DNA from: Rhizaria sp. SCN 62-66
Lineage: Eukaryota
Direction: 5' to 3'
Assembly (NCBI GenBank): GCA_001724265.1
Contig: MEDY01000007.1
Coordinates: 62,001-126,000 of the forward strand
DNA: 64,000 nt
The notes beneath the pieces are model-generated. The model did not search any database. It was not told where the DNA came from and was given only the letters and a program-made list of their open reading frames with translations. The translations under genes were made by a program, and so were the position numbers. Below, one piece after another: positions 16,055-62,481 of the stretch (within the stretch, counting starts at the first letter, position 1; the number at the start of each line of letters is the position of its first letter).

Positions 16055-16089
<35 letters not shown>

Positions 16090-29774: not shown

Positions 29775-31528
29775 TCAGTCGAAGGACGGGAACACGATCT
29801 CAGGCCCGGCGTTGCGGAAGTTGTACTCGGACGCCATGACGCGGCCGTAGGCGCCCGTGTTGTCAATGCACACGACGTCTCCCTCGTCCGTGGCCGCGGG
29901 AAACACGCGCGCCTTGCCCAGGAAATCGCCCGTCTCGCAAATGGGGCCCACAACGTCCACGATCAGCGCCGTGCTGCTCTCCGCAGCGGCTGCGCCGGAG
30001 ACGAAGGTGTGGTTGGCCTCGTTGCCGTCGGACGCGAGACCGGCCGCGCCCTGGCGCAAGTAGACCGCGTCGAACCGCGAGAGATTGACGATGTGGTGGT
30101 ACGCCTCGTAGAGCGCGGGACGGATCAGGTGCGTCATGCCGCATGATACGCCCACGAAGCGGTGCTTGCCCTTGGTCTTGAGCTGCGACACGCGGGCCAC
30201 CAGAGCGCCCGACTGGGCCACGAAGAAACGGCCGGGCTCGATGCAGAACGTGATTGACGGGTTCGCCGCGGCAACAGGGAGCAGCGCGGCGTCCAGGGCG
30301 GGGAGGTCGAGGTGGCCGTCTGTGAAAAAAAAAAAGTAGAGTCGAGTCAGAAAAAGCGAAGTGATGTTAGAAAAGATATACAGTTGACGTCAAGAGCATA
30401 CAGTTGACGTCAAGAGCATACAAAATCGAATTAAGAAGAAAAAAAAACATGAGTCAATAAAAATAGCATCTGCATTATATTTTTAGGACTCTCGGATTTG
30501 ATGATAATTTCGTGTGATATACGGGTAAACGTACCGTTGGGCTTGTACGGAACGCCGAGCCCGCCACCGAGGTCAATGAGCTTAACGTGGGGGAAAACCT
30601 CAAGCAGGCCAACGAGCGAGGTGGCGGAGCGCGCCCACTGCGCGGGGTCTGCGATGCCGGAGCCCTTGTGCATGTGGAGACCCGTGACGGTGATGCCGCA
30701 GTCTGCGATTAGCGCGGCAAAAGCAGGAGAGCGCAGGACCGACTGCTCGATGCCGAACTTGGAGCCCGAGCCGGTGTAGACGTGCGCGTGGTGGCCGTGG
30801 CCGTCCTCGCCGGGGTCAACGCGGAGGAAAATGCTCGCGCCGCGGAAGCACTCTGCGCCCCAGCGCTCGAGGATCCAGCTGTTGTCGACAGTGATGAACG
30901 GCAGCAGCGCGGCGTCCGCGCCGTGGGCCGCCGCGACGGCCGCGGCGCGCGCAGGGGAGGTGAAGAGCGCGGGCACGGCGAGGAACTCGCGCTTGGAGGC
31001 AAAATTGGGCGTGTATAGCACGCGGGAGCCCGGGATGTCGGGGAACAGGGTGAGGATGAGCTGGAGCTCGCCCAGCGACACGCACTCGAAGGAAACGCCG
31101 TGCGAGTTGAGCTCGCGCAGGATCTCATGGTTGCAGTTCGCCTTGATCGCGTAGAAGAGCCTAAAGCGCAGAATGAGGTCATATGCAATACAATAACAAC
31201 ATGGATGCATGGTGGGCGCGTGAGCGGATGAGCCGGACGATGTAGGGAGGAGGGGCGAGGAAAGTAGCGGAGTCGAATGTGGGGTTTTGAGGGAGATATA
31301 TTGCATGTGGAGGAGCGACACGTACTTGTTGATGCTCTTAAGCGCGGTGAGTTTCTTCATGTTCTCACGGAGAAAAGGCAGGGAGTAGACATAGACGCCG
31401 CAGACGTCAGTCTCGCCCTCAGCCCAGACCTTGTTGGCGGCAGCGATGATCTTTGCGCGGGCCTTCTCCTCCGCCCACCATGGAGTGTCGCGGACGGGCG
31501 CAATTGGCAAAAGAGATGCAGTGTCCAT
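29775..31528 (-). CDS. lysA: Diaminopimelate decarboxylase (type-III PLP fold), 3 exons: 31528-31326, 31160-30535, 30319-29775; 457 aa
   Basis: Spliced frame is continuous: PLP lysine in FYAIKAN, FECVSLGEL, HMHKGSG, DLGGGLG, IEPGRFFVA, LIRPALY, VVGPICETGD, GAYG. Both introns are GTACGT...YAG. Ends TGA. Confidence 0.9.
30378..30422. repeat. 20-bp tandem duplication (2.25 copies) in lysA intron 2
   Basis: atacagttgacgtcaagagc twice plus ataca; each unit contains the palindrome TTGACGTCAA. Confidence 0.9.
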
Positions 31529-32275
31529 CCTAAAGTAGTATGCACAAATTGACACAAGCGCTGACGGATGTTTCAGCTCGGAAATCACGCTTCCGTTACA
31601 CGCTTTTCCGCAGCCCCACACTCGCGCATCGCCGACCCTCGGCCCGAGACCACAATTCGATAGCAAGCTGTCAGGCCAGAAACCCAAACAAGGCAATAAA
31701 GCGGGATCTAACGGACACCAATTCGGATATAGATGACAGATTGGTTGTTACGATAAGTTGATTGTATTATATTCAAACTCAAATCTCACTTGAATAATCA
31801 TATAATCTCCGCAAATCACCAAAACGCGACTCGGAGCGAACTACATAGACTAACGTAATGTTCTAAAAAGACATATAAATGCTTGTAATATCAACATCCA
31901 TCTCTCTGGCGTTATCATCAACATAAAGCAACACGTCACAGTGTCTAGGAAACACTGCGTCGTGCCGTATCATGAACAATCACGTCACACATGGTAATAA
32001 CACAATATCAACAAGCAGTGGCCCTGAACCTCATCTAACTTTACACGACAGCCACCACCAGCACAAAAGCATCATCGCATATCGAAAGTCACCGAGCCGC
32101 CAAGCAAGCGTTGCCTAATCTACGCAGTGTACGCACTCGCTACGCGCGCACATCACTCAGACGCCAGTCTCTCGACTCAAGCCACAGACTATCGACTCCA
32201 AAGCACAGTCGGTTTGATGCGACCGGTGTTTAGCTTAGCTCATTGCAACTCCAGACTCGGACTGACTCGACTCAC

Positions 32276-36673: not shown

Positions 36674-38656
36674 ATGATGCAGCGGGTCTTTGTGCCCCTT
36701 GCCTCAGTGCTGCTGATGGCACTCCTCTCTCTGAGTGCAGTCAGGTTCGTCCTCTCCCCCCTCTCTCGCTTCCTCTCTTGCCTCATCATTATCAGCGGTG
36801 CCAACATCGCTCCGTTCCTGCATTTACGCTTACGTATATTATTGCCTCCCACTTCGCTCTCGCTCCTTGTGTTCCTCCGTAGCGCGTCCCCCGAGCCGTC
36901 TCTGCTCCAGGCTGAGTCGACCACGACGTCGGCCTCTTCGTCGCAGTCCCAGTCGCTCGCCGACTACTTCCTCGAGCAGCTCTCGCGCCCGCCCGTCGTC
37001 TGCGACCTGCTCTCCTCCTCGGGCATCTGCGCCACCAACTCCGCCTCGTCGCTGACTCCCGGCCGCGCCACCGTTGCGCCCCCCGCGCTGCCCCCCGCCA
37101 CAGCGGCCGTCTTCTCGTTCGACGAGCTGCTGCACGGCCACACCGTCGACCGCTCCGGCAACGGCCGCCACGGCGTCGTGCTGGCCACGGCCACGGGCGA
37201 CACCGCGCACCTCGCCTCGGCGCCCGACCGTCTCTCGGGCTCCGGCGCGTCTGCGACGTTCACCGGCGCCGCGTTCGTCGCCGTGCCCAACATCCTCACC
37301 CCATCGGCTAACAGCGCTCCCTCGATCGCCGTCGCGCCCGAGGGTCTCACCATCTCGCAGTGGGTCTTCCTGGCCAGCGAGAAGGTCGTCGCGTCGTCCC
37401 CCAAGCACGGCTGCCACGTCTCCGGCGCCGGCCCCACGACGCTGGCGCTGCTACCGTCACGCCACCTGGCCATTCACGCCGGGTCCTACTCGTTCAAGTC
37501 GCACGCGCGCCTACGCCCCATGGTGTGGACCCACGTCGCGCTGACGTACAACACCGCTGATCGCTCGCTCGTGCTCTACGTCAACGGCGTCCGCGACGTC
37601 CACGCGCGCAACCTGCCCCTCGCGCCGCTCACGCTCGACAAGTCGATCCTCGCCGCCTCGGCCGCGGCCGCCGACACCGCCGCCCCGGGCTCCGCGCTCT
37701 CCAAGGTTGCCGCGCTCGACGCGCAGTCGATCCTGTACCTCGGCGCGCTGCCCTCGGCGCACCCACGCGCGTCCAAGTGCGACGTCCGCTACTTCCTCGA
37801 CGACGTGCGCGTGTCGCTCCGCGCGCTCACGGCCAACGAGGTCGCCGCCGAGTCGTTCCCCTCGCTCGGCGCCGTTGAGCCCAGCTTCATCGCGCTCGGC
37901 TGCGACCGCGGCAACACGTGCGCGCGCCCCCAGGCCGCCCGCGCGTGCCCGGCCAACTACCACCTGTGCACGCAGAGCGAGCTCGACGCCGGCGCGCTCG
38001 AGGCCGCCGTGGCCATGGGCTGGGTCGAGTGGGGCGACGAAGTCTGGGCCGCGCCCGAGCCCAAGCTCGCCACCGAGGCCCCCGCCGGCGCCCGCGCCCC
38101 GCCCCGCCCGCGCTCCGCCGCCGCCGTGACGCCCGCTGCTGCGGCCGCGGCCGCGGTTGACGCCGCCGCCGCCGCTGCCGCGGGCACGCCCCCCGTGACA
38201 GCGTTCCTCGAGCTCGAGAGCGAGCTGTACGCGCGCCTCAGCGCTGGTGCGGCCGCCGGGTACAACCCCTACGCGGACGTCGAGGCGCTGGACCCGCAGT
38301 ACAGCGGCAAGGTCGTCCGCGAGGACTTCTCGCTCGCCGAGCTCCTCGCCAGCAGCAGCAGCGGCAGCGGCAGTGATGCCGAAGCTGAGGCGCCCGACGC
38401 TGCCGCTGCTGCTACCGCCGCTGCTCCTGCCGCTGCGGCTGCCCCCGCTGCTGCTGCGACGACTGCGGCTGCTGCGGCGGCCGACAGCACCGCCGCCGCC
38501 GCTGCGACGACTCCTGCGAACGACGGCGAGGCCGTGGTGCGCGAGGTGACTTCGCGCGAGTATAGCGAGTACCTGCCGGCCGAGCCCACTTTTGCGGGCC
38601 CCGGCTCGCCGCAGCAGTGGGTCGCCAAGGTCGCGCTGTGCTGCGCGTTTAACTAA
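36674..38656 (+). CDS. Secreted LamG/ConA-like jelly-roll protein with Cys-rich C-terminal module; exons 36674-36744 and 36883-38656; 614 aa
   Basis: Signal peptide MMQRVFVPLASVLLMALLSLSAVS; FSFDE..VDRSGNGRHG, TISQWVFL, WTHVALTY, LYVNGV, FLDDVRVSLRALTANEV. Pyrimidine-rich intron 36745-36882 (GTTCGT..TAG). Ends TAA. Confidence 0.8.
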   Translation: MMQRVFVPLASVLLMALLSLSAVRFVLSPLSRFLSCLIIISGANIAPFLHLRLRILLPPTSLSLLVFLRSASPEPSLLQAESTTTSASSSQSQSLADYFLEQLSRPPVVCDLLSSSGICATNSASSLTPGRATVAPPALPPATAAVFSFDELLHGHTVDRSGNGRHGVVLATATGDTAHLASAPDRLSGSGASATFTGAAFVAVPNILTPSANSAPSIAVAPEGLTISQWVFLASEKVVASSPKHGCHVSGAGPTTLALLPSRHLAIHAGSYSFKSHARLRPMVWTHVALTYNTADRSLVLYVNGVRDVHARNLPLAPLTLDKSILAASAAAADTAAPGSALSKVAALDAQSILYLGALPSAHPRASKCDVRYFLDDVRVSLRALTANEVAAESFPSLGAVEPSFIALGCDRGNTCARPQAARACPANYHLCTQSELDAGALEAAVAMGWVEWGDEVWAAPEPKLATEAPAGARAPPRPRSAAAVTPAAAAAAAVDAAAAAAAGTPPVTAFLELESELYARLSAGAAAGYNPYADVEALDPQYSGKVVREDFSLAELLASSSSGSGSDAEAEAPDAAAAATAAAPAAAAAPAAAATTAAAAAADSTAAAAATTPANDGEAVVREVTSREYSEYLPAEPTFAGPGSPQQWVAKVALCCAFN

Positions 38657-39920
38657 GCATCGCATGGCAGCACCCTTCAGCTGAGTAAGTGACTCGGAGG
38701 GAAGGGATGAACTTAGGGACGAGGTAAAGAAAAAGAATGAAAGGGGGGGAAGGGAACTGAAAGGAAAGGAAAGGAATAATGGACAGAATTTGGCTGTGGG
38801 TTTCCTCGGTGTGGTGTTGTTTATGGTATGCTTTTTGTTGTTGTTTACATATTTTACCCTTTAAACAAAAAGATATACGCCAGACACGCAGTTCGTTGCG
38901 AACTTCATTGTGTGAACGCACTGGTGACACACAAATAGCCCACTTTTGAGAGAAAGAAGAAAGGAAGTATAGAATGAGAATTGTATGGGAGGAAGAATCT
39001 GTCCGCGAAGTCCTTGTCTTTGCGTTGGGTGAATTGCAGCAGTCAAGTTTGTCATGGTTTGTAAGTTTACGTTTGTTGTGCTACTGTTTCTTTTATTGTG
39101 TGACAAAGCCTAAGATGCTGGAATATGATGAACAAATTAGCAAAAGAAATAAATATATAACAATTTATTATCACTCTAGAACTTTGTAACGTGAGAGACC
39201 CACGCGTACTGTCCGTATGATAACCACACATACGTACTCATGATAAACGTATTCGAATTGTAGATCAAGTCCAGTACTTATTCTCCTGCTTCGTCACAAG
39301 TCACTGGTAACAGGACGCTGCCGACGTTTTACGTTCAGCGTTTGCGCCAGCAGCGGTGCGGCCTCGGAGAGCCCGGAGCCGGCGGTGTCATTTGCCGCTG
39401 ACGATGAGCTGGTTGCTGCTGCGAGGCAATCGGACATGCACACGCTCGTTGCATTGATGAAAGGGTGCATATGATAGCGAATGACTGAGTATTGTATTGA
39501 TAGCACATGATACAAAAATCGACCGGCAATAGCACAGCGTGTAAATGAGTATGCATACTTGTAGGATTGAATAGGCACGGTCAACAAAGAAGAATCAACA
39601 ACTGATACAAATGGGAGACAAAACTAATATAGCATCGGTCGAATCATGGAAACAACACAAAATAGAGAAAGATTAGACATGGAACAAAAGAAAACGAGTC
39701 GCGCAACAGAAGCAACACACACAAAACAGCCGAAGAACACGCGAACATCAAAGCAAACACACAATGGTTGCAAAACAATGACTTCTGACAATACCAGCAA
39801 CAAATGTGGGGTCATTCATTCATTGATCTATAGTTGTGCACATGCATGTAGGTGAGGTTAAACGTGTTCATATAGACTTACGCGTCAACATAAAGAGATA
39901 TCGATATCAACAGCTTGACC

Positions 39921-42900
39921 TTACTGCTTCTTGTTGCTTTCGTTGGCAAGCCTCTGCTGGCGCGCGGCCGCCGCAGCCGCCGCAGCCGCCGCCGCGTCGG
40001 CCGCCGGCAGCCGGACGGCGCCCGCAGGGACCGCAGAGGGCGTTTGCGGCAGCCACAGCGTCGGCTGCTGCTGCTGCTGGGGAGACTGTGGCGCCAGCGG
40101 CGACTGCGGCTGCGGCTGCAAGGGAGCGGGCGACAGCGCCTGGGGCGGGGGCGGGGGCGGCACGGCCTTCGGCATCGGCGGGGCGTGCTGTTGCTGCTGT
40201 TGCTGCTGCATGTTTTGAGCTGAGTAGTACGACGCAGGCATCGTCGTCGCGTTCTTAGGTGGCGGCGGCGGCGGCGGCGTCGCCAGCGGAGACGACGGCG
40301 CCGCAGCAGCGGAAGCGGGAGCAGCAGGCGAGCTTGCGCCTTGCGGCTTCGGAGGGGGCGGCGGCGGCACGGAGATAGGAGTGACCGTGGGCAGCGGAGT
40401 GACGGCGGGCGCGACAGGCACCGCCGGGGCAACGGGAGGCAGGGGCTGGAAGCCGGAGACGGCTGGCGCGTTCACAGCAGCAGCGTTGCTGTTGCTGCTG
40501 CTGTTCGCAGACGCAGCGGAGGGGGACTGCGGCGGCGCAAGCGAGAGCATCGCGGGGGCCTTGTTGGATGGCGTGTACGGGGCGGGACGGCCGGCAGTGT
40601 ACGTCGGCTGCTGTTGCTGAGGCTGCTGCGGCGGCTGCTGCTGGTAATACGCGAAGGGCGACGGGGCAGCGGCGGCAGCTGTGGGGGAAGCGGGATTGAC
40701 AATACGCTGCGTGTATGTGCCTTGCTGGTTCGTGTAGCTGGGCTGCTGCTGCTGTGCGGAGGTCGGCGTCAGCATCACGTCGCCAGTGCTAACTGCAGCC
40801 GCACTCGCGCTCGCAGGGCTACTGATGACGTTCGCGCCCGTGGCAGCGTTAGCAGTGCTGCTGTTGGTGTTGGTGTTGTCGCCGTCCGTCTTGCTGCGGC
40901 ACTTAAGGTAGGTCGCGATGACGACCGCGGCCAGCACCAGCGCGCCGACGACCGCGATGACGATGATCGCCCACGTGGGCAGCGCGGCGCCGCTGTCGTC
41001 GGTGGCCAGAGTGACGGCGTCGCCGAAGCCGGCCGCGCGGCACGCCGCCGGGGTCGTCAGCACAGCCTTGCTGCACACGGCGCTGGCGCCGGCGCCGTCG
41101 GTGGTGGCGGCCGAGCTGTCGCCGCCGCCCGAGACGGGCTAGCAGCGGCCCGAGCTGGGGCAGTAGGCGCACAAGCCGCCTGCGGCAGGCGCGGTGCAGA
41201 AGCCGCACGACGTCGCGGGGGGGCACACGGTGGCCGTGGCGAAGAGCGAGGACGAAGACGAGGACGAAGACGAAGAACTGGCCGCGGCCGAGGCGGAGGC
41301 CGACAGGGCGGACTCGAGGGCGGAGCGGACCGCGGCGGCGGAGCGCGAGTCCGCCGCCGCGGTCGCAGCGGCGGAGAACGAGCGAGAACGGGTGCGAGAG
41401 CGGGCGGCAGTGGTCTGCATGATGTTGCTGGCGGCGTAGCTCTTGCCGCTGCCGCTGGGGAGCGACGACTCCGGGTCAGGCTCCGTGAAGGCGAGGTTGA
41501 GCACAATCAGCTTGCCCGCCGTCACAGCCGCAGTCTTGGCAGTCTTCGCAGACTTGGTGGTCGAAGCAGCGGCGAGGCGCTTGAACACAGTGGCCGACGC
41601 AGCAGCGCTCAGCGTCGTTGCAGCAGCAGCAGAAACTTTCGTCACGGCGGCAGTGGCGTTGCCGAGAGCGGCGTCGACGGTGCCCTTGGCGATCGCAGCC
41701 GCCCGGCGCGCGATCTCCTCCAAGTTCTCGATGTCCGTCGTGGAGACAAGCTGCAGCACGAGGCGCGCGGTGTCGGTCTCCGCGAGCTCCGCCAAATCAG
41801 CGGCGACGAGGTCGAGGAACGCGTCGACGTCGCTGTTGAGCGCGAACGAAGTCGGCACACGCCAGTCAAGCTCGACCGCGAAAGCAAAGCGCGTCCAGGG
41901 CAGTTCGCGCGCGACGGGGAAGGCGCATCCGTGAAGCACGTTGAGCGTGTAGCCCTCCCAGATCGACCAGGACCAATCGCCCTTGGTCCACTTCTTCAGC
42001 GCGTACGCGTGCGCGTGCGCCTCGGCGGACACGGCCGCGACGCCGGCCTCGACGTGGTAACGCAGGCGGTGCGGCACTGTGCAGTCGCCCTTGCGCCAGA
42101 GCGCGGACGCGCGCGTCGCGGCCGCGGTCGCGTCGTCCATGGCCGCAGTCACGGCAAACGCGTTCGCATTGACAGCAGAAGATGTCGCGGTGGATGGCGC
42201 GTCGGCGACGCTGGCGGCGTCAGGTAGCGCGTTGAAGCCCTTTGTGGTGGCTTCGAGCTTGCCGCGCACGAAAAGCGGCGCCGAGATCGAGGCGTCGATG
42301 ATGCTGCTGAGCTCGAGCGCGATCGTGGGCACGACTTCGACCTGCAGAGTCGCCTCGCCGGCCAGGGTGAGCGCGGCCTCGACACCAGCAGCGAGGGAAG
42401 AGGAAAACACGTCGCCCGTGGAGTCGCCGTAGCGGATGATCGTCGTGAAAGCGGGCTGCTTGACGGTGCCGACAACGGTGACGATGCCGCGCGCCGAGGC
42501 TTCGTAGCCGAGCGCGATGACAACGCCCAGCGTGAAGTCGAGGTCGAAATCAATGCCGGCCACTGTGAAGGAGAACCCGCCGAAGCGGTAGCCGATGGTG
42601 GCGAGCTCGGCGCGGCCCGTCAGCGAGAGCTCGAGCGACGCGTCGAGCGCGAGCTTGGCCTCGAGCGAGCCCGACACGGTGGCAACGAAGCGATCCGTGG
42701 CGCTCGAGCCGAGGTCGAGGCGCACGCCGCCGACGCCGATGGAGCCGGTGAAGTAGCAGTCGGTGCAGTCGACCGTGGCGTGAACGTCAATGCCGGCGTC
42801 GCAGAGGGAGCACTGGGCGCGGGCGAAGAAATTCGACGGCGAGGGGGCCGGGCACGTGGCCGTGGCGCACGACGAGTCGAGCAGGGTCTTGCTCTCGACA

Positions 42901-45190
42901 GAGGACTGCGCAGAGAAGAAGAGTGAAAACATACCAAAGAGTGTGAGCAAAATGACCAATTTCTTATAACATACCGAGATTCATCAAATAATCGTTGCAG
43001 TAAATGACCCGTACCTTAGTGGTCGCGTCGTAGTTCCACTGCGGGGTAAAGAGCCTGGGAATGGTGAAATAGGGAGACTCCCAAGTCGAGCACGAGTACA
43101 CGACGCCCAGCGCCTTCTTGCACCCATACTTGATCTGGATATAGAACGGGTACATCGAGCCGTCATCGCTGGCGAATGCGATCTCATGCGTCGCGTCACC
43201 GGCCGGCAAGTTGAGCGACTTCTCCTGCCGCTCCTCGTCGCGCAGCGCCACAAGGCGGAAGCGCATGAGGCGAATCTCGCCGTCCTCGAGCGCAGAGTCG
43301 TGGTGGTAGCGCAGACGCACCGAGAATGCCGCGTTGGGCGCGCGCACGCTGCCCGCCGCGGGGTCAACGAGCGTGAAGCGGTCCAACGACTCGGAGAACA
43401 AGAGGAACTTGTCGGGCGCATTGGCCGACGCACACGTGGGGTCGTCGAGCGAGCACACGGGCACGACTGTGTCGGCCGCGGCGCAGGGCGTGTACACGGT
43501 CTCCAGCCCCAGATCCTTGTCCACGGCGCCGGCGTTCTCCGCGGCGGGCAGCACCACGGTCGGCGTGCCGGTCGCGCTCGAGTTGGTAAAGACGCATATG
43601 TCGGCGTAGACCTTGTCGCTCCGCAGCAAGCTCTGCGTGACGGTGAAACGGATGGTGCCGTCGCCGGTCGTGGTGACCGTGGGCACGGTGACCGTGAGCG
43701 AGCCGAAGAAGGTGCCCTCGCCGCGGTCGAACGTGCTCGCGTGGGAGTAAAACCGCACGCGCACGGCGGCAGCCGTCGTCGTCGGCGCCGTGGCCGATGT
43801 GGTAAGGTTGTAGTGCATGTGGAAGGCGTCGTTGAGCGCGAACACGCGGCCGTCGTTGTTGCCGAAAAAGGCCGTGTTGAGCAGGACCCCGGGCGGAAGC
43901 GCGAGCGTGGCCATATTCGCATTGCCAGAAGCAGCAGCAGCAGCCGCAGCAGGAGCACGAGTGTGGGGTCGACGGCGCGCCAAAGCAGCATGCGGGTTAC
44001 TCGACTGAGCGCTAGTGCTGGTGGGAAGGAACTCGAAGGCGTCGGCGTACTGCGCGCGGACCGCGGCCTCGGCCTCGGGCATGCTGTCCAGCTGGCCCGC
44101 GGTGGCGGCGGGGCCCCAGAGCGCGGCCGCCACCGAGTCGGCGAGCGGGCCGAAGACGGAGTCGGCGCGCGCGGAGAGGCTGCTGCGCGCCGCTGCGATC
44201 GCGGGATGCGCCGCGATGTTCGCCCAGTCGCGGGCCGAGGGCGCGCCGGTGTCCAGCGCGACGGAACCGGAGAGGAAAAGGTCCGCGGGGTCCACGGGCG
44301 CAGTCTGCAGCGTCACGCGCCGCGCCGCAGTCGCATTCGCGGACTGGGGCTCGATTGAGACAGCGGTGATCACGCGGTAGAAAGGGCGCGGGGCGCCGAG
44401 GCGGGAGAGGGAGCAGCGGAAGCGGCGGCTGCCGTGGAGGTACGCGCCGGAAACCAGCGCGGCAACAGCAGCGCCAGCATTAGCGTCAGTTGCTGCGGGC
44501 AGGTTGAAGGATATGGAAGTGGGGTTGGTGCACGAGAGGCTGAAAGCAGCTGCGGAGGCGCTGAAAAAAGAGTCATCGTTGTTGCCAAGGCCAGCGTTGT
44601 TGACGCTGCTGCTGCCACTATCGATAGCACTATCTTCGTTGCCGTTGTTCTTGCTGTTGTCGTTGAACAGGTTGGAGAAAGTGGCGATGTTGACGACATT
44701 GGGCTTCAGAGCAGCATTGTACGCCAGCGAGACCTGCTCGCCAGTGGCCAGAAGCGTGCGCGCGGCACCGGAGTAAAGCGTAGCGGTAGAAGCAGCATCC
44801 TCGGTGGTGGCGGTAGAAGTAGGGGAGAATAGAGAACTGGAGAGCGCAGCAGAGCCGTGTGCCGAGCTGCCGGCGGCTGCGAGAAGCGTGGGGCGATGCG
44901 ACAGAAGCGATGTCACGGGCTCGACTGCATGGCCACGACGAACAGCGACCGATGACCGTGCAAGCTATGGAGAAGAAGAAAAAGAAAGAATGTAGATCAT
45001 GAGAGAAGATGCGGCCAAAAACATAATGTTTCTACAGCGTGAAGTGCAGCAGACGACTGCAAAGTCGAGCTGAAGAACTGGCAGGCCGAGAATGATGCAA
45101 AAGACGTACCAGTACACCGAGTGTAGTGACTGCAAGAGCAAGAATACTTGCAAAGATTGCAGTTCCAACAATATGGTTCAACCTCTTCAT
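39921..45190 (-). CDS. Type-I membrane surface protein, paralog A (beta-rich ectodomain, PSI domain, TM, Pro/Gln-rich tail); exons 45190-45110, 44964-43015, 42905-39921; contains an in-frame TAG at 41141-41139
   Basis: Signal peptide MKRLNHIVGTAIFASILALAVTTLGVL; two phase-0 introns. The exon junction WNYDATTK|SSVESKTLLD aligns with paralog B WNYKPSTGAASESKTLLD. Track ORFs 41139..42959 and 39921..41078 share one frame and are separated only by the TAG. Final stop is TAA. Could be a pseudogene allele. Confidence 0.8.
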
Positions 45191-45418
45191 GCTGGGAAGC
45201 AACTTGACGATATTCTCGCGACGGAATTCACACCTTTGCAAAGCAGACGAGTTCTCCTGTCTGGCTCAGTTCAGTGAGCGACGACTATCCCCCTTCGCAA
45301 GGTTCCGAAAAAATCGACTTTCCCACCTCCTCCGCTCAACCAACAGGATGACGACGTAACTCGGGCGAACATTGATCGGCTTTGCTCAGGCACCTGGCCG
45401 TTGTTCATTCTGTTTGTG
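45191..45418. promoter_or_regulatory. Putative compact bidirectional promoter/5' leader region between the two divergent paralogs
   Basis: Only 228 bp separate the two divergent ATGs (45190 minus, 45419 plus). Inferred from geometry; no motif identified. Confidence 0.5.
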
Positions 45419-48400
45419 ATGCAGAAGATCATTGTTGGTGCGTGTGTAGTCGCAGCTACGGCTGCTGCTTCAATGCACTTCGAAATCAAGGTATGTAGCC
45501 CCGTCAAAATAGTGCCGTTTTATACTCGTGTCACTTTCTCCCCCGTCACTCTGCATTTTCATGTTTTTTCCAAAGATCTCGTTCTTCTATTATGCTTTTC
45601 AGTGGTATTCCGACTCATTGTGCGCATTTCACACCCTGTGCCCCCTTTTTTATTGCCATCTCAGAACGAGAAGACCCCCTCGTGGGGCGGCTCGCTCCTC
45701 TCCAAGGACGTCCCCTCCGTGGGCACGAACGAGGCTGGCGAGCGTCTCTACGAGCATTCTGCGCGCATGCTTGCTCCCAACGGCAAGCAGTGGTTCTTTG
45801 ACTACAACGCCGCTGTTAAGACCAACACCGTCGTGCTCCAGAATGCCGGCATCGCGGCTTCTCAGGTCACCTGCAGCGAGAACTCGCTGTTCCTGACGCT
45901 CACCGACGCCGAGGTCGCTGCCCTCAACCTCCAGGAGGGCTCGCTCATCCACGGTGACTCTCGCTACGGCTGCTACAACACCGACGTCGATGGTGCGGGT
46001 CCTTTCTACCGCTCCGTCAGCTCTGTTGCCGGGGACGAGGCCGGCAAGGTCGTGCTCACGACCACCGACGTCGACCCCCTGGAGCTTTTCTCCGACCTCA
46101 ACCTCGACCTCAAGGAGTTCGACATGGAGCAACAGGACTGGCAGGCGCTCAAGACCAGTCCGGCCCTCGCGTCGCTGCAGTCCGCGCTGGGCACCGTTGC
46201 CACGGGCACCCGCAACGACGACGACGAGCTGACATCTTTCCCCGACCTCGCCACCGAGGAGGCGCGTCTCACCAGCTCCAACTTCGTTGAGCTCCCCCTC
46301 ACCCCGGCCTCGCTCGCGCGCTTCCGCGCCGCCGTGCCCGCCGCCGAGGTCCGTCTCGCCGAGGACCAGGCCCGCGCCGAGCAGCTCGCCCGCAACTCGC
46401 GCCCCGACAATGCCATCTCGAGCGTCTACGCCCCCGTCGCCGCGGTCGATGGCGACGTCGCGGTCGCCGTGACCGGCCCCACCATCTCCGGCGTGTACTT
46501 CGAGTCCGACGACGCGACCGTCTACACCGCCGGTGACGCCCTCGGCATCTCCCTTGAGACCTCCGGCTTCGCCTCGGGCGCCCAGGTCAAGGTGCGTTTC
46601 TTCACTGCCGCCGGCTCGGCGTTCCCCAAGACCGAGGCGTCGTTCCTAACAAGCGTCAACCTCGCGATCGACGACTCGCTCAACATCCCCATCACCAAGG
46701 TCTTTGCCGGCGAGAACAAGATCTACGCTGACGTGTGCTTCTACACCGGCTCCGTCGAGGACAGCGGCATGTCGTGCGCCACCGCGCCCCAGGTCGTCGA
46801 CGTGTGCTCGCTCGACGACCGGCGGTGCAAGACCAACTCCGTCTTCGTCGTCAACGCCAGCGCGCTCTTCACCATGTCGACCCCGACGGCGAACGAGATC
46901 CTGACTGCGGGCAAGCCTGTGCAGACCAAGATCGCCTTCCACGGCCCCAAGATGGAGGACGTGACAATCCGCCTCATGCGCTGGCGCATGTTGGCTTTCT
47001 CGGACGAGGAGATCGGCAAGCTGGACACCACGATGCGTCCCTCGTACACCACCACGGTGACGTTCAACCCCACCACGGGCGTCGCGGGCTCTATCTACCC
47101 GTACTTCGTGCAGATCAAGTACGACTGCGGCTGGTTCCGCTGCAAGAAGTGGAACTCCCCGTTCTTCTCCATTCCTAAGGACATCGTCGCCACCTGGAAC
47201 TACAAGCCCAGCACCGGCGCCGCGTCCGAGAGCAAGACGCTGCTGGACGTCGACTGCGGCGACATGTACGGCAAGTGCACGGCGCAAACGTCGTGGGTCC
47301 GCAAGGCGCAGTGCAACGCGTGCTCCAAGCTCCACGTGCAGACCAAGGTCGTGTGCGAGGACTGCTGGGTCAACGGCAACGTCGCCGTTGGCGGACTCCG
47401 CGTGCGCCTGATGGACCGCTCCGAGAACCGCTTCGGCATGACCGTGCTCGGTGAGTACGATGCCCATTTCGGCATCAAGGCCACGCTCGACTACGCCACC
47501 GCGGGCGAGAATACCATCGCGTCCGTCGGCTACAAGATCGCGGACTTCGAGTTCACTGTCGCGGGCATCGCGTTCACGGTCGTGCTCAAGCTTGCCGTCG
47601 ACCTCGGCGTCGGCTACAAGATTCAACTGCACGGTGTCGCCAAGTACTCCGCCAGCATCCAGCAGCCCAAGTTCACGACCATCATCAAGTACGGCTCGTC
47701 AACCGCCGCCTCGCAGCCCACGGCGACGAAGCAGGTCACGTCTTCGATGTCGTTCGCCGGCGAGGGCACCCTCTCGGCCCTTATCACCCCTACCTTGCAG
47801 GTCACCATCTCCAAGCTCATCGACGCCTCCGTCAAGCTGCCGCTGTTCATCGACCTCACCGCTAAGGCTGACACCGCCGGCCTCGTCCCCATGTCTAAGC
47901 GCCCCGCTGCGGCCGCCCAGTTCGGCGATTGCGGCAAGGACCACCGGCTCGAGTACCTTGGCGTCGCCGGCGCGCGCAAGTTCACCGCCCACGCCGACAT
48001 GAAGGTCTTCAAGGCCTGGGGCGCCAAGGCCTGGGACTGGACAATTTGGGACGGCAACCAGTTCAACCTGCTCCAGGGCTGCGGCTTCACCATGCCGGCC
48101 AATGGCTTCCGCTTCCGCGCTTCGTTCGCCGGCGCGTGGACCTGGGAGGTGCCGGACGACTTTAACACATACGCCACCACTGCGCAGTTCCTCGGCCTTC
48201 TCGCCGAGGACCTTGAGACCATCACGGGCGCCCCCATCGGCCGCTTTGTGCTCTCCGCCGTTAACCAGTACCCCGACCCCAACGCCGTTGCGGGCAGCGC
48301 CATCGTCACCGCCGGTGCCGGCGAGTCCGAGATAGACGGTGCGAGCATGGCGGCGATCATGCCGCTGATGACCGAGGCCGAAGCCGAGAAAGCCGCGTCG

Positions 48401-49060
48401 ACTGGCATGCTCACCGTCTCGCTCGACTCGCCCGAGACTGCGCGCCTCTTCACCCGTCTCTCCTCGCTCCTGAACCGGAACAAGAAGGACGACACCGAGG
48501 TCAACGCGTCCGTCGGCGTCGCCCGCCGCGTCGCCGTTGTCGAGATCGGCGTGCTCGAGGACGATACCAACGCGCCCAAGGACCCCAAGGGCCGCACGGG
48601 CACCGCGCTGCGCAATGAGATTGAGGCGCTGCTGGGCAGCCCGGCGAGCCACTCCAAGACGTTCCTTGTCAAGGACGGCATCTGCGCGCCCCAGAGCACG
48701 TGCACCGCCTGCGCCAAGACCATCGGCTGCGCCTACTGCCCCACCAACAAGCGCTGCGAGGCCACGGGCTCCAAGTCCTCCTGCGCTAAGTCCCTTATTG
48801 CCAAGCCCGCCAACTGCCCCGCCTCGCTCACGTCGCCCCTCGACGTCTTCGACGCCGCACCGCGCAGCGTGTCTGCGGGCGAGATGATGGCCGCCGAGGA
48901 CGCGTGGGTCGACAAGGTCGTCTTCATCGGCTGCGGGCTCGCCGCGCTGGCCGCTGCGATCGCCGGCGCCATGTTTGTGGTGATGCACAAGCGCAAGCAG
49001 GTGCAGGAGGAGGAGAAGGAGGCCACGGCCGAGGACGTCTACGTCGCGCTCTCTGAGTAA
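45419..49060 (+). CDS. Type-I membrane surface protein, paralog B (same ectodomain, PSI domain, TM, short tail); exons 45419-45490 and 45665-49060; 1155 aa
   Basis: Signal peptide MQKIIVGACVVAATAAA; intron GTATGT..CAG 45491-45664; PSI-like CAPQSTCTACAKTIGCAYCPTNKRCE...C...NCP; TM VVFIGCGLAALAAAIAGAMFVVM; tail ends EDVYVALSE, then TAA. Strong C/G third-position bias. Confidence 0.85.
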   Translation: MQKIIVGACVVAATAAASMHFEIKVCSPVKIVPFYTRVTFSPVTLHFHVFSKDLVLLLCFSVVFRLIVRISHPVPPFLLPSQNEKTPSWGGSLLSKDVPSVGTNEAGERLYEHSARMLAPNGKQWFFDYNAAVKTNTVVLQNAGIAASQVTCSENSLFLTLTDAEVAALNLQEGSLIHGDSRYGCYNTDVDGAGPFYRSVSSVAGDEAGKVVLTTTDVDPLELFSDLNLDLKEFDMEQQDWQALKTSPALASLQSALGTVATGTRNDDDELTSFPDLATEEARLTSSNFVELPLTPASLARFRAAVPAAEVRLAEDQARAEQLARNSRPDNAISSVYAPVAAVDGDVAVAVTGPTISGVYFESDDATVYTAGDALGISLETSGFASGAQVKVRFFTAAGSAFPKTEASFLTSVNLAIDDSLNIPITKVFAGENKIYADVCFYTGSVEDSGMSCATAPQVVDVCSLDDRRCKTNSVFVVNASALFTMSTPTANEILTAGKPVQTKIAFHGPKMEDVTIRLMRWRMLAFSDEEIGKLDTTMRPSYTTTVTFNPTTGVAGSIYPYFVQIKYDCGWFRCKKWNSPFFSIPKDIVATWNYKPSTGAASESKTLLDVDCGDMYGKCTAQTSWVRKAQCNACSKLHVQTKVVCEDCWVNGNVAVGGLRVRLMDRSENRFGMTVLGEYDAHFGIKATLDYATAGENTIASVGYKIADFEFTVAGIAFTVVLKLAVDLGVGYKIQLHGVAKYSASIQQPKFTTIIKYGSSTAASQPTATKQVTSSMSFAGEGTLSALITPTLQVTISKLIDASVKLPLFIDLTAKADTAGLVPMSKRPAAAAQFGDCGKDHRLEYLGVAGARKFTAHADMKVFKAWGAKAWDWTIWDGNQFNLLQGCGFTMPANGFRFRASFAGAWTWEVPDDFNTYATTAQFLGLLAEDLETITGAPIGRFVLSAVNQYPDPNAVAGSAIVTAGAGESEIDGASMAAIMPLMTEAEAEKAASTGMLTVSLDSPETARLFTRLSSLLNRNKKDDTEVNASVGVARRVAVVEIGVLEDDTNAPKDPKGRTGTALRNEIEALLGSPASHSKTFLVKDGICAPQSTCTACAKTIGCAYCPTNKRCEATGSKSSCAKSLIAKPANCPASLTSPLDVFDAAPRSVSAGEMMAAEDAWVDKVVFIGCGLAALAAAIAGAMFVVMHKRKQVQEEEKEATAEDVYVALSE

Positions 49061-51074: not shown

Positions 51075-51384
51075 TTATTCGATATCCGTGACCTCAGGGA
51101 GCTCAAAGTCGTGAATGCCCATCCCGGCACCGTGACTGACGTTCACAGCCGCAGAAGCATCGCCCACAGGAGCCTTGGCGCTCTGGGTGCGGGCGCTGCC
51201 GGGACGGGACTGCGACTGCGACGGCGGCTGCGAATGCGGCTGCGAATGCGGCTGTGACGGCGGCTGCAAGTGCGCAGGCGAACGCGACTGCGACCGCGAC
51301 TGCGCCCGTGAGTTGAGCTGCGAGTTCAGCTGAGACTGGGCGTTCGAGTTCGTGTTCGAGCGCGAGTTCGACTGCGAGTGCTGC

Positions 51385-51416
<32 letters not shown>

Positions 51417-52084
51417 GGGGGCGGGACTCATGGCGCGAGGCGAGGGCAAGTCGAACTCGCCACCATCGTCGATCACGAAGTTGTCATCGCCGTGGCTCAA
51501 TGCGGAGTTAAGCGCGAAGCCGCCGCGGCCGGACGCGGCCGCCGCCGCCGCCGCCGCCGCGGCAACGACTGCGTTGGGGTCGACACCCGCGCCCTGCAGC
51601 GTATACACGCCGTTCGCAGCAGCAAGAACGATGTCCTCGCCGTTGGCGTCGTTGCTGTCGGAGGCGGCGGTCACCACGCGCGCGCCGCGCGTCGCAGCGG
51701 CCTGCGCTGCGGCGCTGTTGGGCGACAGCGCACCCTCGACCGCGCCGGCTGCGTTGCTCGGACTGTGGTCGTTGTTGTTGTTGCGGGTGAGCTGCTCGGC
51801 GGTGAACTTGGCGGCGCTGCGCGAGAGCCGCGACTTGCCGCCGCGGCCCGCGGTCGCGCTCAACGGGGGCGCGGCCACGGACGCCGTGGCGAACGCCTCG
51901 GCCGCGGCCGCGCTCGTGGTCACCGTGCTCGTGCCGGCGGCGGCGTGATTCTTGCGGCGGATGTGGGCGAGCTCGACGCTCTTGCCGCCCTCGGCGCCAG
52001 AGTGCGAACGCTGGCGCACGCGCCCGGCCTTGCGGTGGCCGGCGCGCCCGCCCTCCTCGTCGTTGCCGTCGTAATCGTCGCCGA

Positions 52085-52116
<32 letters not shown>

Positions 52117-55100
52117 ACGCGCTGCATGCCCGCGCGGGCGCCCGCGCGCGACCAGCACGAGCAGCCGTACCAGCAGAGCCCGCAAAAGACCTGTGTGAGC
52201 ACGCGCCGCACGCCGCCCACGCGCGCTCTTTTGTCGCTGCTCGCCTCGCCCACCTCGACGCCGTCGCCGACGCTGGCGTTGGCGCCAGAGGAGGCGGCGG
52301 CGGCAGCAGCAGCGGCGGCAGCGGCTTCGGGGCTGCTCCTGCGGCGGCGGAGCGAGAGCGCGGCAAATCCAGCGAGGCAGATGAGCGACGAGCAGATAAT
52401 CGCGATGCCGATGTAGGCGTCGTCGGCCGTCGACGCCGTCGCACCCGCGGGGTCGGCGTTGAGCGGCGAGAGGTGGTGCACGGCCAGTGTGAACGACACG
52501 TCGTGGCAACAAAAGCCGCGCACGCCGATGTGCACCGCGTGAACGCCGATGTCGTTGTACACGCCCGCCGTCGCCAGCCCGCGCTCCGGCCCCGCCGTGT
52601 TGGCGTACCGCGTCGCCGCCGTGTGTGTAAGCTTCTGGTGAGCCGCCACCGCGGCCTCGGCGCGCGCGCGGTGCATCTTGCCGGCGGCCATGAGGTCCTG
52701 GCGAGTCAGAGTCACGGTGCTGTAGCGCTCGCCGACGCGGACCGCGATGTTGCCGCTGCCGCCGGAAGAGCTGGTGTCAGGGAACAATGCGTCCGACACA
52801 CCCGCGCCAAAGATGTAGCTGTCCCACGAGTCGTTTGCGCGGCGGAACCAGCGCTCCGAGGGCAGCGACGTGCGCGCGCCGCAAGGGGCGAAGACGGACT
52901 TATCGGGCTTGGTGCTGCTCGACGAGTGTTCGACGATGGTGATGTCGCCGACGTCGGTATCGAGTGTGATGTAGACGTCGGGGTCGCCGAGGGACGACGT
53001 GCGCGTGAGCACGATGTACAGGTCGCCGAGCAGCAATGACAGCGGGACAGGGCTGGCGGCCTTGTCGGCGGCGTCGTCGTCAGTGCCGGTGTCGTCGTCG
53101 TCGTCGTCGATCGCACGCACGCCGCTCTTGTTCTCACTCTGACTTAGCGTGCGCTGGCTCTTAAGGAGGGCCTTGGCGCGGCGCTTGGCGGCGCGGTTCG
53201 CAGCGGCCGAGGCGGCGGCGGCAGCGGCGGAGGCAGCGGCGGCGGCGTCCTCGTCGACTTGCGAGGTCGCGGCCGCGCCGACACGGCGCAGACGGCGCGC
53301 GGGCGCGAGCGTGTCGCCGCGCAAGGGCAGCGTGTAGTGCGCCCACTGCTGCGGCGGCAGCGTCGCCGAGACCGTGGCCACGGTCGGCAGCACGCGCGTC
53401 ACGATGCCTGACGAGACGATATCGGGGAACGCGCCGCTGTCGCTGGCGCTGTCACTCATCGTACTCATGGACGCCGCGGTGGCAGCGGTGGCGGCGGCGA
53501 AGGCGACGGGATCGTAGAAGTCGTCGTAGTCGCTGTCGGGCGAGTCATAGTTGTCGTAGTAGCTGCGACGAGCGTTGGAGTTCGCAGCCTTGTCGTTCGC
53601 TCTCGAGTTAGAGTTAGCCGCGTTATCGCTGTCGCCGGTGATCTCGTTCTCAGACTCGCTGTCGTCACCGCTGTCGGAAATCGCGGCGAGGTCATCGTCC
53701 TTGATGACGGCCTGCGTGCCGAAGGCCTTGCCGCCCTCAGATACGGCGCGCACACTGGCGTCGGCGACGACGTAGCTGCCCTCGCACCCGGCGGGCACCA
53801 AGGACTCGAACCCGTCCTCCGCGGCGGCATTGACGTAGTTGTTGCCGTTGGCCGCGGCGGAGCTGGTGCAGGGCGAGAGCTCCTGAGTGACGAGGCTGCA
53901 GTCGGCGCCGGCGAAGAGCACGGGCGCGACTGCCGCGCCGGTGCGGGGGTCGCGCAGCTCCGGCACGGGCCAGTGGAAGTGCACCGGCACCGCGGGCGAC
54001 AGCGATGCAGCCGTCTCGGGCGCGCCCGCGGACGCGGCGGCCTCAGCCGCGGCGGCGACGGCGTCCGCGTAGTCGGTCGGGTGCGCCCAACCGCAGTGGC
54101 AGGAGCCGCGCAGACAGCGGCCGCGGCGCGAGCAGGCGCGCGGACACAGCACCGACGACACCGCGGACGTCGTCGTTGAGCTCGCAGTCGCCGCGCCCGC
54201 GGTCGACTTGGTGCTGTTGCTGCCCTTAGCGCCAGCAGTCTTCGCGGACTTGTTGCTGAGCGTGTTGACGTGGCTGACGCTCGCGCTGGCGCTATTGGTG
54301 TTGCTAAGGGTGGTGAGCGGGGCGCAGACCTCGGCGCCCCACTGCGGGCCCTGGCCGGCGCCCGTGCTGTCATCCGCAGCGGCCGACTCGACCAGCTCGG
54401 CGCCCGTCACCACAAGCGCGTAGTGCTGCTGCGGGGGGCCGGTGGCCGCGGTGCCGGCAGAGCGCGTCACCACGCGGCCTGCGCGCACGGCGACGAGGAG
54501 CGGGATCGACCGGCCCTTAAGCGCGGCCTCGACCTCGGCCTCGGTCGCCGTGACAGGCGCCATCGACCCGTCGGGCTGCTGCTTCTGGCGCGTGATGACG
54601 TGCGCGTGCAGGAACGCCGACAGCGGGATCACGGCGCGCTCCAACGGGTTCGCGCCGTCCTTGTGCACGGCGGGCGTCAGCGACTCGGCACGCAGCGCGA
54701 AGGCCGCGCTGGTGGCGTCGGCGACCGAGGCGGCGGACGAGGCGGCCGTGGCGCTCGAGGGCCGCAGCAGCGCAGCGCTGGGGGCCAGCCAGTCGACGGT
54801 GCTGTCAACGTCGGGGAAGTCGGCCGAGTCCGAGAACGCGCCCGAGGTGCCGTAGGCGGGCGTCACGGGCGAGACCGGGGTGGCCGTGGGGGACAGCGAG
54901 CGCGGGACGCCCAACGCCACGCCGTCCGCGTTGCCGAACGAGACCACGGTGTGCGGGACGGCGCCGGCGACAGTGCTGCCGCTGGAGCTGGAACTGGAGG
55001 TGACTGTGGTGGCGGGGAGCTCGACGATGAGGTCGAGGTCGTTGTTAAGCACAGAAGACTGCGCCAACAGCGTCACGACGTCAGCCTCTGCGTCGGAGTC

Positions 55101-58100: not shown

Positions 58101-58746
58101 GCTGCGGAGAGAGCGGCGGCGCAGAGCGCGGCGCAGGCGGGCTCGAGCACGGCGACGCTGACAACGCGGTGTAAGTACCCCGACCCCTTAGCCAGTGGCG
58201 CGGACACGGCGGCGGCGGCGCGGACGGGCTCGCCCGCGGCGGCGGCGGCGGCGGCGGCGGCGGCCTCGGCCACGGCGGCCGCCTCGGCGGCGTCGGTGCC
58301 GGTGCGTGCCACGGCGAAGGCGGCGGGCAAGAACAGGGCCGACGCGCACGGGGAGGCTAAGGGGGTACTTAGAGGCGAGGGACAGGTGGCGGACAGACCG
58401 GCGGTGGCGCGGGACGGCGACGCGAAGCTGGTGATGTACGGGGCCGTGGCAGCAGTCAGCGAAGCAATAGACGCCTCGATACTAGTCTTAACACGGTCAC
58501 TGTTGCTGTTGCTGTTGCTGGAGTAACGATTGAGAGTGGCAGCCGCGGCAGAGAGAGCGGCAGCGCGGGACGCCAAGCCGTTGTGCTTGAGGGTCAGTGC
58601 GGCCGCCGCAGTCACGGCAAGGGTGGGAGTCGTCTCGGCACTGGTGTAGAGCGCGATGCGGGAGATGACCGTAAGCAGACGTGACGCCTCGGCCGCGACG
58701 GACTTAGCAAGCGCAACCGCAACGGCGCTGACGCCAGTCTCCTTGC

Positions 58747-58821
<75 letters not shown>

Positions 58822-61099: not shown

Positions 61100-61938
61100 G
61101 GGCGGAACGGGCCAGTGCGCGCGGCAGAGCGCGGGGAACGCGGGGAGAGCGGCGGTGGAGAGTCGTTGGAAGGAAGGCTGGACGAGTTAAACGGGTATCG
61201 TGTACGCGTCTCTGCGGATCGAAAAAGAAGGCAGAGGCTATGTGAGACAAATATGTGGAAGTTTTGTGAGTGGAGTATCGGGATAGAGCGCGGAAATCCA
61301 TGAAAGTGGACAAGAAAGTGTTGTGGCGAACAAATGTGGAAACTAGACGATCCAAGCAGCAGCGTTTGGAGTGGTCGCGATCAGAAAGAAATGACCTCGA
61401 ATTCAGGCAACCATGATCGTCCTGACGCATAATAAATAAGACAGAGCAAATAGTTTTTCTCATCAATCTCCCCCACAGTCAAATGTAACGCCAGATAGTG
61501 CACCAAAACCACAATGCATATCACTCAAGATGGCTGAACGAGTCGCTTTTGTCTGTCCTTCCAGCCACAAACAAACAGCCAGCCTGCCGGCCGGTTCGCA
61601 AAAATGGCACTGTGGCGGGCAATAGGAAGTGGGGAGCGCAGGACATCGCTATTTGCTCGCTCATTTATCGTCATAGCAGTATGGGCTTGTTTCTATAGCA
61701 TTAAACTGCACTGTAGTTGTCTTTACTCTATTTGTATCTTTCATCAAGCCCGCCTTGCCTGTCTAGTAGAAGGACTTCGACGCGCTTAGGAAGACCACCA
61801 TGTCCGTGGCGGTCCAGCCCCGGGCATTGCTCACTAGAAGCCCTAAACAAAACCTAACGACTCCAAGTCAAACACAGTATGTTAAATCTCACTCTGAATT
61901 ACTCCGCCATGTTGCTCTTGCCCCGTTTCAGACTCGTC

Positions 61939-62481
61939 ATGCGCCCCCTGAGCGAGGAGGAGACGAAGAAGGTCTTCGAGAAGCTGACCAAGTACATCGG
62001 CCGCAACCTGCAGCTGCTGCTGGAGCGCAAGGACGGCAACTACGCCTTCCGTCTCCAGAAGGACCGCGTCTACTACATGTCCGAGGCCGTGCTCAAGATT
62101 GCCGTCGGCGTGCCCCGTGACAATCTGGTCTCTGCTGGCACGTGCTTCGGCAAGTTCACCCACTCCGGCCGCTTCCGCCTCAACATCACCGCGCTCGACT
62201 ACATCGCGCAGTTCGCCAAGTACAAGATGTGGATCAAGCCCTCCGGTGAGATGAACTACCTCTACGGCAACAACGTTCTTAAGGCCCACCTGGGCCGCAT
62301 CACCGAGAACACCCCCACGCACCAGGGCGTGGTCTTCTACACCATGGCCGACATCCCCGTCGGCTTCGGCGTCTCCGCGCAGAGCACGCTCGACTGCCGC
62401 AAGGTCGAGGCCACCGCCATCGTCGGCTTCCACCAGACCGACATCGGCGAGTATCTCCGTATCGAAGAGAACCTCACCTAA
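61939..62481 (+). CDS. NIP7: 60S ribosome biogenesis protein NIP7, 180 aa
   Basis: [48 protein letters not shown] and [10 protein letters not shown] match NIP7 along its full length. Ends TAA. Confidence 0.97.

Follow-up and report, generated by a model that had tools for sequence, protein, structure and literature searches.

Programmed readthrough of a stop codon is known from Drosophila kelch and headcase, from the peroxisomal extensions of LDHB and MDH1, and from viral UAG-CAAUYA sites. Basal readthrough of UAG amounts to approximately 1-2% in mammalian cells, and a C at the +4 position generally lowers the efficiency of termination (both according to the portion of PMC4615788 drawn on here). 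In other organisms UAG is a sense codon. The rhizarian exLh, which reads UAG as Leu, has 384 in-frame UAGs in 71 genes and gene ends of 56 UAA, 15 UGA, and 0 UAG, and Iotanema spirale, in which UAG encodes Gln, has 204 in-frame UAGs in 126 genes and gene ends of 104 UAA, 15 UGA, and 0 UAG; for the known UAG-sense protists, 1.6-5.4 in-frame UAGs per gene are given (all in the portion of PMC5304391 considered). Here, we describe an in-frame TAG codon in a large membrane-protein gene, called paralog A, of Rhizaria sp. SCN 62-66 (GenBank assembly GCA_001724265.1). The gene lies in a stretch of 64,000 nucleotides (contig MEDY01000007.1, positions 62,001 to 126,000 of the forward strand), which is called the window hereafter and whose own numbering is used throughout. 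The explanation towards which we lean, with modest confidence, is a young, fixed, lineage-specific GAG>TAG nonsense substitution behind which the part encoding the anchor and the tail has not yet decayed.

Read on the minus strand, the TAG (41139-41141) is embedded in CGC TGC TAG CCC GTC, where the frame upstream reads ...LCAYCPSSGRC and the frame downstream continues as PVSGGGDSSAATTDGAGASAVCSKAVLTTPAAC, followed by the hydrophobic helix WAIIVIAVVGALVLAAVVIATYL. This downstream frame (39924-41138) comprises 405 codons, encoding a 14-residue insertion, the last two conserved cysteines of a Cys-rich module (codons at 41075-41073 and 41042-41040), a transmembrane (TM) helix at approximately 40976-40893, and a long Pro/Gln/Ala-rich tail with PPPPPPPK motifs. 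It is closed by a TAA at 39921-39923, after which a G and an AT-rich spacer (GC 0.43) follow. The original prediction, made from the letters of the window, had described the TAG at 41141-41139 (TGC TAG CCC), a TM helix, a long tail and about 405 stopless codons behind it, and the position of the last two cysteines downstream of it; re-reading the sequence and aligning it with homologs bear out all of these points, with the frame open to the TAA at 39923-39921. The composition on both sides of the TAG resembles that of coding sequence, as the GC contents at codon positions 1, 2, and 3 (GC1, GC2, and GC3) are 0.61, 0.60, and 0.87 in the upstream part of exon 3 and 0.68, 0.64, and 0.83 in the downstream frame, in which GC3 is 0.93 over the first 110 codons and 0.79 in the tail. 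An open frame of this length exceeds what composition would yield: 405 open codons were obtained in only 182 of 20,000 shuffles that preserve codon positions and in 31 of 20,000 mononucleotide shuffles.

The TAG is genuine and recurs in independent sequences. An assembly error is excluded because the same TAG is present in an independent metagenome contig, in a DNA contig and an RNA-library contig of two public runs, and in the 6 contigs from three sources (JGI/IMG, Logan, and ENA) from which P0001, the open reading frame (ORF) closed by this TAG, is on record. The independent contig (L001, 6938 nt, JGI) is 100% identical to window positions 37212-44149 over all 6938 bases; it was the one locus confirmed among 218 pattern matches in a scan of metagenome contigs for related loci, and it carries the same sequence as the window. 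Four public runs (X3, X4, X5, and X6) were compared over 39700-45100, all as assembled contigs, which drop minor variants and from which allele shares are not readable. A DNA contig of X3, which is possibly the source sample or a sibling of it, spans 39942-44170 with 0 differences, TAG included. X5, a polyA metatranscriptome library from an independent study filed in 2025, provides a contig of 254 nt that spans 40974-41227 and has the TAG, 0 differences, and 0 gaps; no piece listed for X5 lies over either intron of the gene, so that carried-over DNA is possible in this library. No alternative letter at the TAG is listed in the four runs, and listed pieces cross the site in X3 and X5 only; for X4 and X6, the depth in the bin of the TAG is 0.76 and 0.49, respectively. 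Stretches that lack cover were left out of account. The sole base difference listed across the runs in 5.4 kb is a C>T at 42824 (X4), and the TAG is constant in every sample that covers the site, the samples having been filed from 2015 to 2025. In one contig of each of the four runs, 4 bases are inserted behind 42289, in exon 3 of paralog A; this may reflect either a frameshifted variant or a short matching segment of a foreign organism, and a contig of X5 (42230-42713), among others, matches the window without the insertion. It was also observed that low-complexity stretches draw foreign contigs, with depth peaks at 40062-40423 and 43863-44043.

A word-indexed search of a collection of 5.8 billion proteins (7998 candidates scored) returned only P0001, which is paralog A's own, and P0002 at E ≤ 0.001. 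A HMMER search of 1.84 billion representatives gave 36 proteins at this threshold, five of which fall below 1e-30, namely P0002, P0124, two ORFs of paralog A (P0001 and P0125), and the ORF of its neighbour, paralog B (P0123). P0002 (1214 aa, JGI) and P0124 are known from metagenomes only. P0002 is an A-type relative, whose N-terminal half aligns with exon 2 of paralog A and which continues into a TM helix and a Pro-rich tail. Eight cysteine columns are common to A, B, and P0002. The three uninterrupted homologs (B, P0002, and P0124) all read C-E-A after the sixth cysteine, with the next cysteine eight residues on, and paralog A reads C-TAG-P with 14 extra residues before the next cysteine. In paralog B, the segment reads CAYCPTNKRC-E-ATGSKSSC, and the Glu codon is GAG at 48758-48760. 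The TM helix and the tail are present in all three homologs, and the stop of paralog A falls 405 codons before the homologous end. Identity between A and P0002 is 55% upstream of the TAG (274/498) and 52% downstream of it (35/67). As judged from these alignments, the stop is derived and lineage-specific because all three uninterrupted homologs have Glu and the codon in B is GAG. MAFFT placed the TAG in the Glu column in one alignment and at the head of the 14-residue insertion beside the Glu column in another, and the conclusion holds under either placement. The original alignment of the TAG with Glu (GAG) of paralog B is therefore upheld as far as the codon in B is concerned and holds for the column in one of the two placements, and each of the three homologs has a sense codon after this cysteine, no closer ortholog having been found in the two protein searches or the contig scan.

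A nonsense substitution is the best-supported explanation because all three uninterrupted homologs have Glu and the codon of B is GAG, and the recent GAG>TAG allele, one of the options of the original prediction, has thereby moved to the front. A single G>T change in the conserved Glu codon (GAG) after the sixth cysteine would have created the TAG, which would then have become fixed in the sampled population. Termination at this codon would release a 1265-residue secreted ectodomain without the last two cysteines, the anchor, and the tail, and the 1.2 kb behind the TAG would be an undecayed remnant, carried as a long GC-rich 3' untranslated region, with any full-length product arising only from basal leak. 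As outcome, a membrane protein would become a truncated secreted one, or a pseudogene would begin. We infer both the termination at the TAG and the young age of the mutation. The TAG is the only lesion of paralog A, whose 1671 codons contain neither a frameshift nor another stop. Of the 3645 single-base changes possible in the 405 codons downstream, 88 create a stop, and these 1215 nt, if untranslated, would stay intact with a probability of 5% up to approximately 0.09-0.015 neutral changes per site (for indels at 0-20% of the substitution rate), a bound to be read as an order of magnitude. A young age is plausible, as one single-nucleotide polymorphism was found in 5.4 kb across runs and the age bound is compatible with it. 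With respect to a pseudogene, there is a premature stop relative to full-length homologs, and neither further lesions nor relaxed constraint were found; if the gene is a pseudogene, it would be a very young one. Paralog A may thus be a newly secreted form or a leaky allele and not a dead gene.

Several observations weigh against a nonsense mutation. There is no decay downstream of the TAG, where 405 codons have neither a frameshift nor a second stop, and GC3 just past the TAG is 0.93 compared with a total GC of 0.37-0.46 in real spacers. Similarity to P0002 is comparable on the two sides of the TAG (35/67 downstream vs 274/498 upstream), and the rest of the gene is flawless, including the start codon, the signal peptide, and two canonical introns. 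Paralog A is probably still transcribed because RNA-library contigs cover the gene on both sides of the TAG. Furthermore, TAG followed by C is a weak stop context. A purine follows 13 of the 14 genuine stops in the window, and TAG is not used as terminator by any of the 14 genes. Truncation would leave six of the eight cysteines. In PSI domains, the partners of the last two cysteines lie upstream; if the pairing in paralog A were PSI-like, two of the six would be unpaired, and the product would be an awkward one. It is also possible that the same population holds an intact allele, as contigs drop minor variants.

Among the alternatives, functional readthrough fares best, and we judge it rather unlikely. 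The TAG would be leaky and one mRNA would give mostly the secreted ectodomain and, in a smaller share, the full-length anchored protein, with selection keeping the 405 codons. It is consistent with the base at +4, which is C at the TAG and G (10), A (3), or T (1) after the 14 genuine stops, never C. The intact downstream frame with its coding-like composition, as conserved with respect to P0002 as the upstream part, would fit as well, as would the fixation of the TAG in samples filed from 2015 to 2025, RNA-library contigs that run at least 975 nt beyond it, and the lack of TAG as terminator in all 14 genes of the window. On the other hand, the comparative signature of programmed readthrough is absent because the stop is not conserved, Glu being found in three of three homologs. 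The sequence UAG-CCC-GUC matches none of the stimulatory motifs listed in the part of PMC4615788 consulted, including UAG-CAAUYA, nor UGA-CUAG, and the bases before the stop are G and C and not the A residues associated with readthrough (PMC4615788, same part). No stimulatory RNA fold was detected in 131 nt around and 3' of the TAG (z = +0.45), since 136 of 200 shuffles fold at least as well; of the stimulatory features, only the C at +4 fits. Moreover, a young mutation equally predicts an intact downstream frame, which therefore does not distinguish the two. The programmed switch put forward in the original prediction is thus weakened by the unshared stop, the missing motif, and the ordinary fold, and the C at +4 and the intact, conserved downstream part stay compatible with it.

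A second alternative, which we hold to be distinctly improbable, is that the organism is diploid or the population mixed and that an allele with GAG or another sense codon coexists, is dropped by the assemblers, and carries the function. The four runs were available as contigs only, in which rare variants are lost, and none of the pieces listed for X4 and X6 crosses the TAG, the bin depths being those given above; both points would leave room for such an allele. Against it, no near-identical intact protein of 545-1736 aa was present among the 7998 scored candidates from the 5.8-billion-protein collection, the HMMER search over 1.84 billion representatives gave no further A-type protein, and the contigs of X3 and X5 show no break at the position of the TAG.

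It was further considered that UAG is a sense codon, or is becoming one through a suppressor tRNA, in which case the product would have all 1671 residues, with Glu or Gln in place of the stop; this we regard as very unlikely. In 19 ORF segments of 14 genes, 17,212 codons are read with the standard code and no stop, among them 559 GAG, 69 GAA, 420 CAG, and 82 CAA, and in-frame TAG occurs once in about 17,600 codons of these genes. All stops with at least 80 open codons and GC3 of at least 0.8 on both sides were scanned for, and of the nine that were flagged, seven lie on the strand opposite to a gene, one is out of frame (with the GC peak at position 2), and the ninth is the TAG of paralog A. 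No other in-frame stop on a sense strand of the window has coding-type composition on its two sides, and two other TAGs that close long ORFs fall inside AT-rich introns of the GTACGC/GTATGT type. One in-frame TAG against 559 GAG, 69 GAA, and 420 CAG in 14 genes argues against a sense codon; at the per-gene rates of exLh and Iotanema spirale taken from the portion of PMC5304391 considered, a count of one or none in 14 genes has a probability of no more than 4e-9. In addition, no polyQ or Glu-rich tract is broken by TAG. What speaks for a sense codon is that the TAG stands where three of three homologs have Glu and that the 14 genes end in 8 TAA, 6 TGA, and 0 TAG despite a GC3 of about 0.85, which is the terminator pattern of exLh and Iotanema spirale as far as it is given in that source. 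The latter observation is a weak one, with P = 0.044 if TAG has its normal 20% share and 0.23 if it has 10%. The lack of any close sequenced relative also leaves room for a deviating code. No tRNA gene was found by ARAGORN in the 64-kb window, which is hence uninformative on a suppressor tRNA-CUA, and there is no eRF1 gene in it. Of the features expected from sense UAG, many in-frame UAGs are missing and the absence of UAG from gene ends is seen, weakly, in the 64 kb examined. A settled reassignment of UAG is unlikely, and a very young or partial one is conceivable on 64 kb. The sense-codon option of the original prediction is accordingly made unlikely by a single in-frame TAG in about 17,600 codons, and an incipient state would be compatible with TAG ending none of the 14 genes. 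A broader proposal, to which we give little credence, is that UAG is no longer an efficient terminator in this organism, be it through an incipient capture of UAG for Glu or Gln or through a genome-wide suppressor, so that the TAG of paralog A would be translated and the anchored receptor made. The absence of TAG from all 14 gene ends would be explained by UAG being an inefficient terminator. If true, reassignment of UAG alone would be seen here just as it begins, with UAA and UGA retained as stops in a GC-rich genome.

There is only a slim chance that the TAG is lost from the mature mRNA with a cryptic intron or altered by RNA editing. Within 300 nt of the TAG there are 85 in-frame GT..AG pairs, which nominally allow for an intron; all of them have 73-80% GC, a GTA start is seen in none, and conserved cysteines would be lost with every one of them. 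The four real introns examined begin with GTAYG, a start not shared by any of the 85 pairs, and the 121 bases centred on the TAG have 79% GC compared with 44% and 39% in the two introns of paralog A. No plausible intron around the TAG is found among the 15 of 67 joints listed; the two among them that span the TAG skip 1356 and 1493 nt, and their shorter sides have only 21-22 letters. As far as consensus contigs show, the RNA-library contig of X5 (40974-41227) is collinear with the DNA and has the TAG unchanged. The original statement that no AT-rich intron removes the TAG thus agrees with the GC content, the comparison of intron starts, and the collinear RNA-library contig. Finally, an assembly or sequencing error is practically inconceivable, as identical TAGs occur across independent assemblies and in an RNA-library contig and nothing was found in its favour. 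The original prediction had held that sequence alone could not separate its options; the follow-up does so in part, with the error refuted, the sense code unlikely, and readthrough still conceivable.

Paralog A is a minus-strand gene of three exons and two introns and has 1671 codons if read through the TAG. Exon 1 (45110-45190) contains, as read from the sequence, the ATG and a 27-codon signal peptide MKRLNHIVGTAIFASILALAVTTLGVL, after which GTACGT follows. Intron 1 (44965-45109, GTACGT...CATAG) has 145 nt and a GC content of 0.44, and its removal restores the frame into exon 2 (43015-44964), which encodes the N-terminal ectodomain in 650 codons and corresponds to the ORF P0125. Intron 2 (42906-43014, GTACGG...CGCAG) has 109 nt and a GC content of 0.39, and the homologs are uninterrupted through WNY...ESK at this position. 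Both introns are deduced from the sequence and the homologs. Exon 3 extends over 588 codons to the stop (41142-42905, the ORF P0001) and contains a beta-rich ectodomain, a linker, and the first six cysteines of the Cys-rich module. P0125 and P0001 (597 aa, from a prokaryote-style gene caller) are therefore pieces of the same gene in the protein collection. Taken together, paralog A is predicted to be a type I membrane protein consisting of a signal peptide, a large beta-rich ectodomain, an eight-cysteine juxtamembrane module, a TM helix, and a Pro-rich cytoplasmic tail. Paralog B (ORF at 45278-49060, plus strand) is arranged head-to-head with A and runs uninterrupted through the Cys-rich module, the TM helix, and a short tail to a TAA. 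The start codons of A (ATG at 45190) and B (first plausible ATG near 45419) are approximately 230 nt apart, each gene has an AT-rich intron directly after the signal-peptide exon, and the tails differ, the one of B being short and acidic and the one of A being 300 residues long and Pro/Gln-rich.

Together, A and B represent a family of large type I membrane proteins for which neither a Pfam family nor a clear fold match was found. Pfam searches with the whole proteins and with the Cys-rich part (E up to 10) gave no family for A, B, or P0002. The closest approach to a PSI domain was PSI_integrin for B (E = 0.53, 10.5 bits compared with a cut-off of 27), and there was no PSI match for A (TAG read as Glu) or P0002. 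The module thus does not reach the gathering scores of PF01437 and PF17205, and the label "PSI domain" of the original prediction, which rests on the cysteine pattern, was not confirmed by any significant match. An AlphaFold2 (AF2) model of a paralog A fragment, read through with the TAG as Glu, was built from 27 aligned sequences and has a mean pLDDT of 64. Residues 1-330 lie mostly above a pLDDT of 70, residues 641-668 form the TM helix, and the Cys-rich module lies below 50 (about 30), so that its fold and its disulfide pairing are unreadable. The ectodomain (window positions 41142-42896) is modelled as a sheet of very long beta-hairpins with strands of 28-43 residues. A Foldseek search against the PDB gave 0 matches at E ≤ 0.001, the wide VIA-align search reached a best Z of 7.0 with none at 8 or above, which is within the background, and a protein atlas search with P0124 gave a best score of 0.76, below the level of a lead. 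Pore-forming MACPF proteins, porins, autotransporters, and SEA-like domains were not taken as relatives, as their VIA-align rows are at background level. Weak SEA-domain-like rows (Z 4.8-6.4) were observed for the stretch before the Cys-rich module (model residues 330-552).

The window is eukaryotic. In its long ORFs, the GC content is 58-75% at codon positions 1 and 2 and 64-92% at position 3, the spacers between them have 37-46% GC, and short AT-rich introns start with GTACGT, GTACGG, GTACGC, or GTATGT. The runs that hold the sequence are metagenomes of bioreactors, wastewater, and activated sludge; 18 runs from 9 studies are listed, of which 16 contain part and 5 at least half of the sampled words. 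The kinesin motor of the organism is at most 41% identical to the other proteins listed, with the best named matches in oomycetes and chlorophytes at 38-40% (7773 of 8000 scored candidates had E ≤ 0.001). The organism is uncultured and deep-branching, without a close sequenced relative. Other genes of the window include an ornithine-decarboxylase-type gene with introns and a Pfam ODC match (29775-31747, minus strand) and a subtilase with a PA domain (51075-61186, minus strand), which has about 3350 codons in two exons and an AT-rich intron starting with GTACGC near 56421. Three further ORFs were named by eye from their translations, namely a NIP7-like ribosome-biogenesis protein (61858-62481, plus strand), an Fe/Mn superoxide-dismutase-like protein (17990-19021, minus strand), and a second pyridoxal-phosphate-decarboxylase-like ORF (62921-63910, minus strand). 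Runs of poly-Gln, poly-Ala, poly-Ser, and poly-Asn are abundant, for example at 10305-17507, 19686-23369, and 39924-40800.

If the TAG is a young nonsense allele, it would be an ordinary event in a lineage-specific surface-protein family, with little import beyond annotation, where gene callers split paralog A into pieces, P0125 and P0001 among them. The value of the locus lies in the residual doubt, since it belongs to an organism without a sequenced relative that recurs in wastewater and bioreactor samples from 2015 to 2025 and whose 14 genes in the window have no TAG terminator. Activated sludge may conceivably harbour a eukaryote that avoids UAG or reads it.

In comparison with known systems, the Cys-rich module shares with PSI domains that it is short, extracellular, and located just outside the membrane and that it has eight cysteines with a CxxC-like CAYC core, but there is no significant Pfam match and no confident model, and the name denotes a resemblance only. 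The UAG-only codes (exLh and Iotanema spirale, PMC5304391; phyllopharyngean ciliates, PMC11687900; as far as covered by the portions considered) resemble the window in that UAA and UGA are the sole terminators seen and that a UAG stands at a conserved position; those lineages, however, carry one to several in-frame UAGs per gene, and the window has one in 14 long genes. With programmed readthrough genes, paralog A has in common a stop followed by C and a long coding-like extension that adds a module, here a TM anchor and a tail. In those genes, the stop is conserved at the natural end of the ORF, often with a defined 3' motif or structure, whereas in paralog A it interrupts a domain, has no counterpart in any homolog, and is accompanied by neither a motif nor an exceptional fold. 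Compared with young nonsense-disrupted paralogs, paralog A differs in that it is still found in a polyA RNA library and that its downstream part shows no relaxation; it matches them in having a single premature stop one base away from a sense codon (GAG/TAG), no other lesion, and an intact paralog adjoining it.

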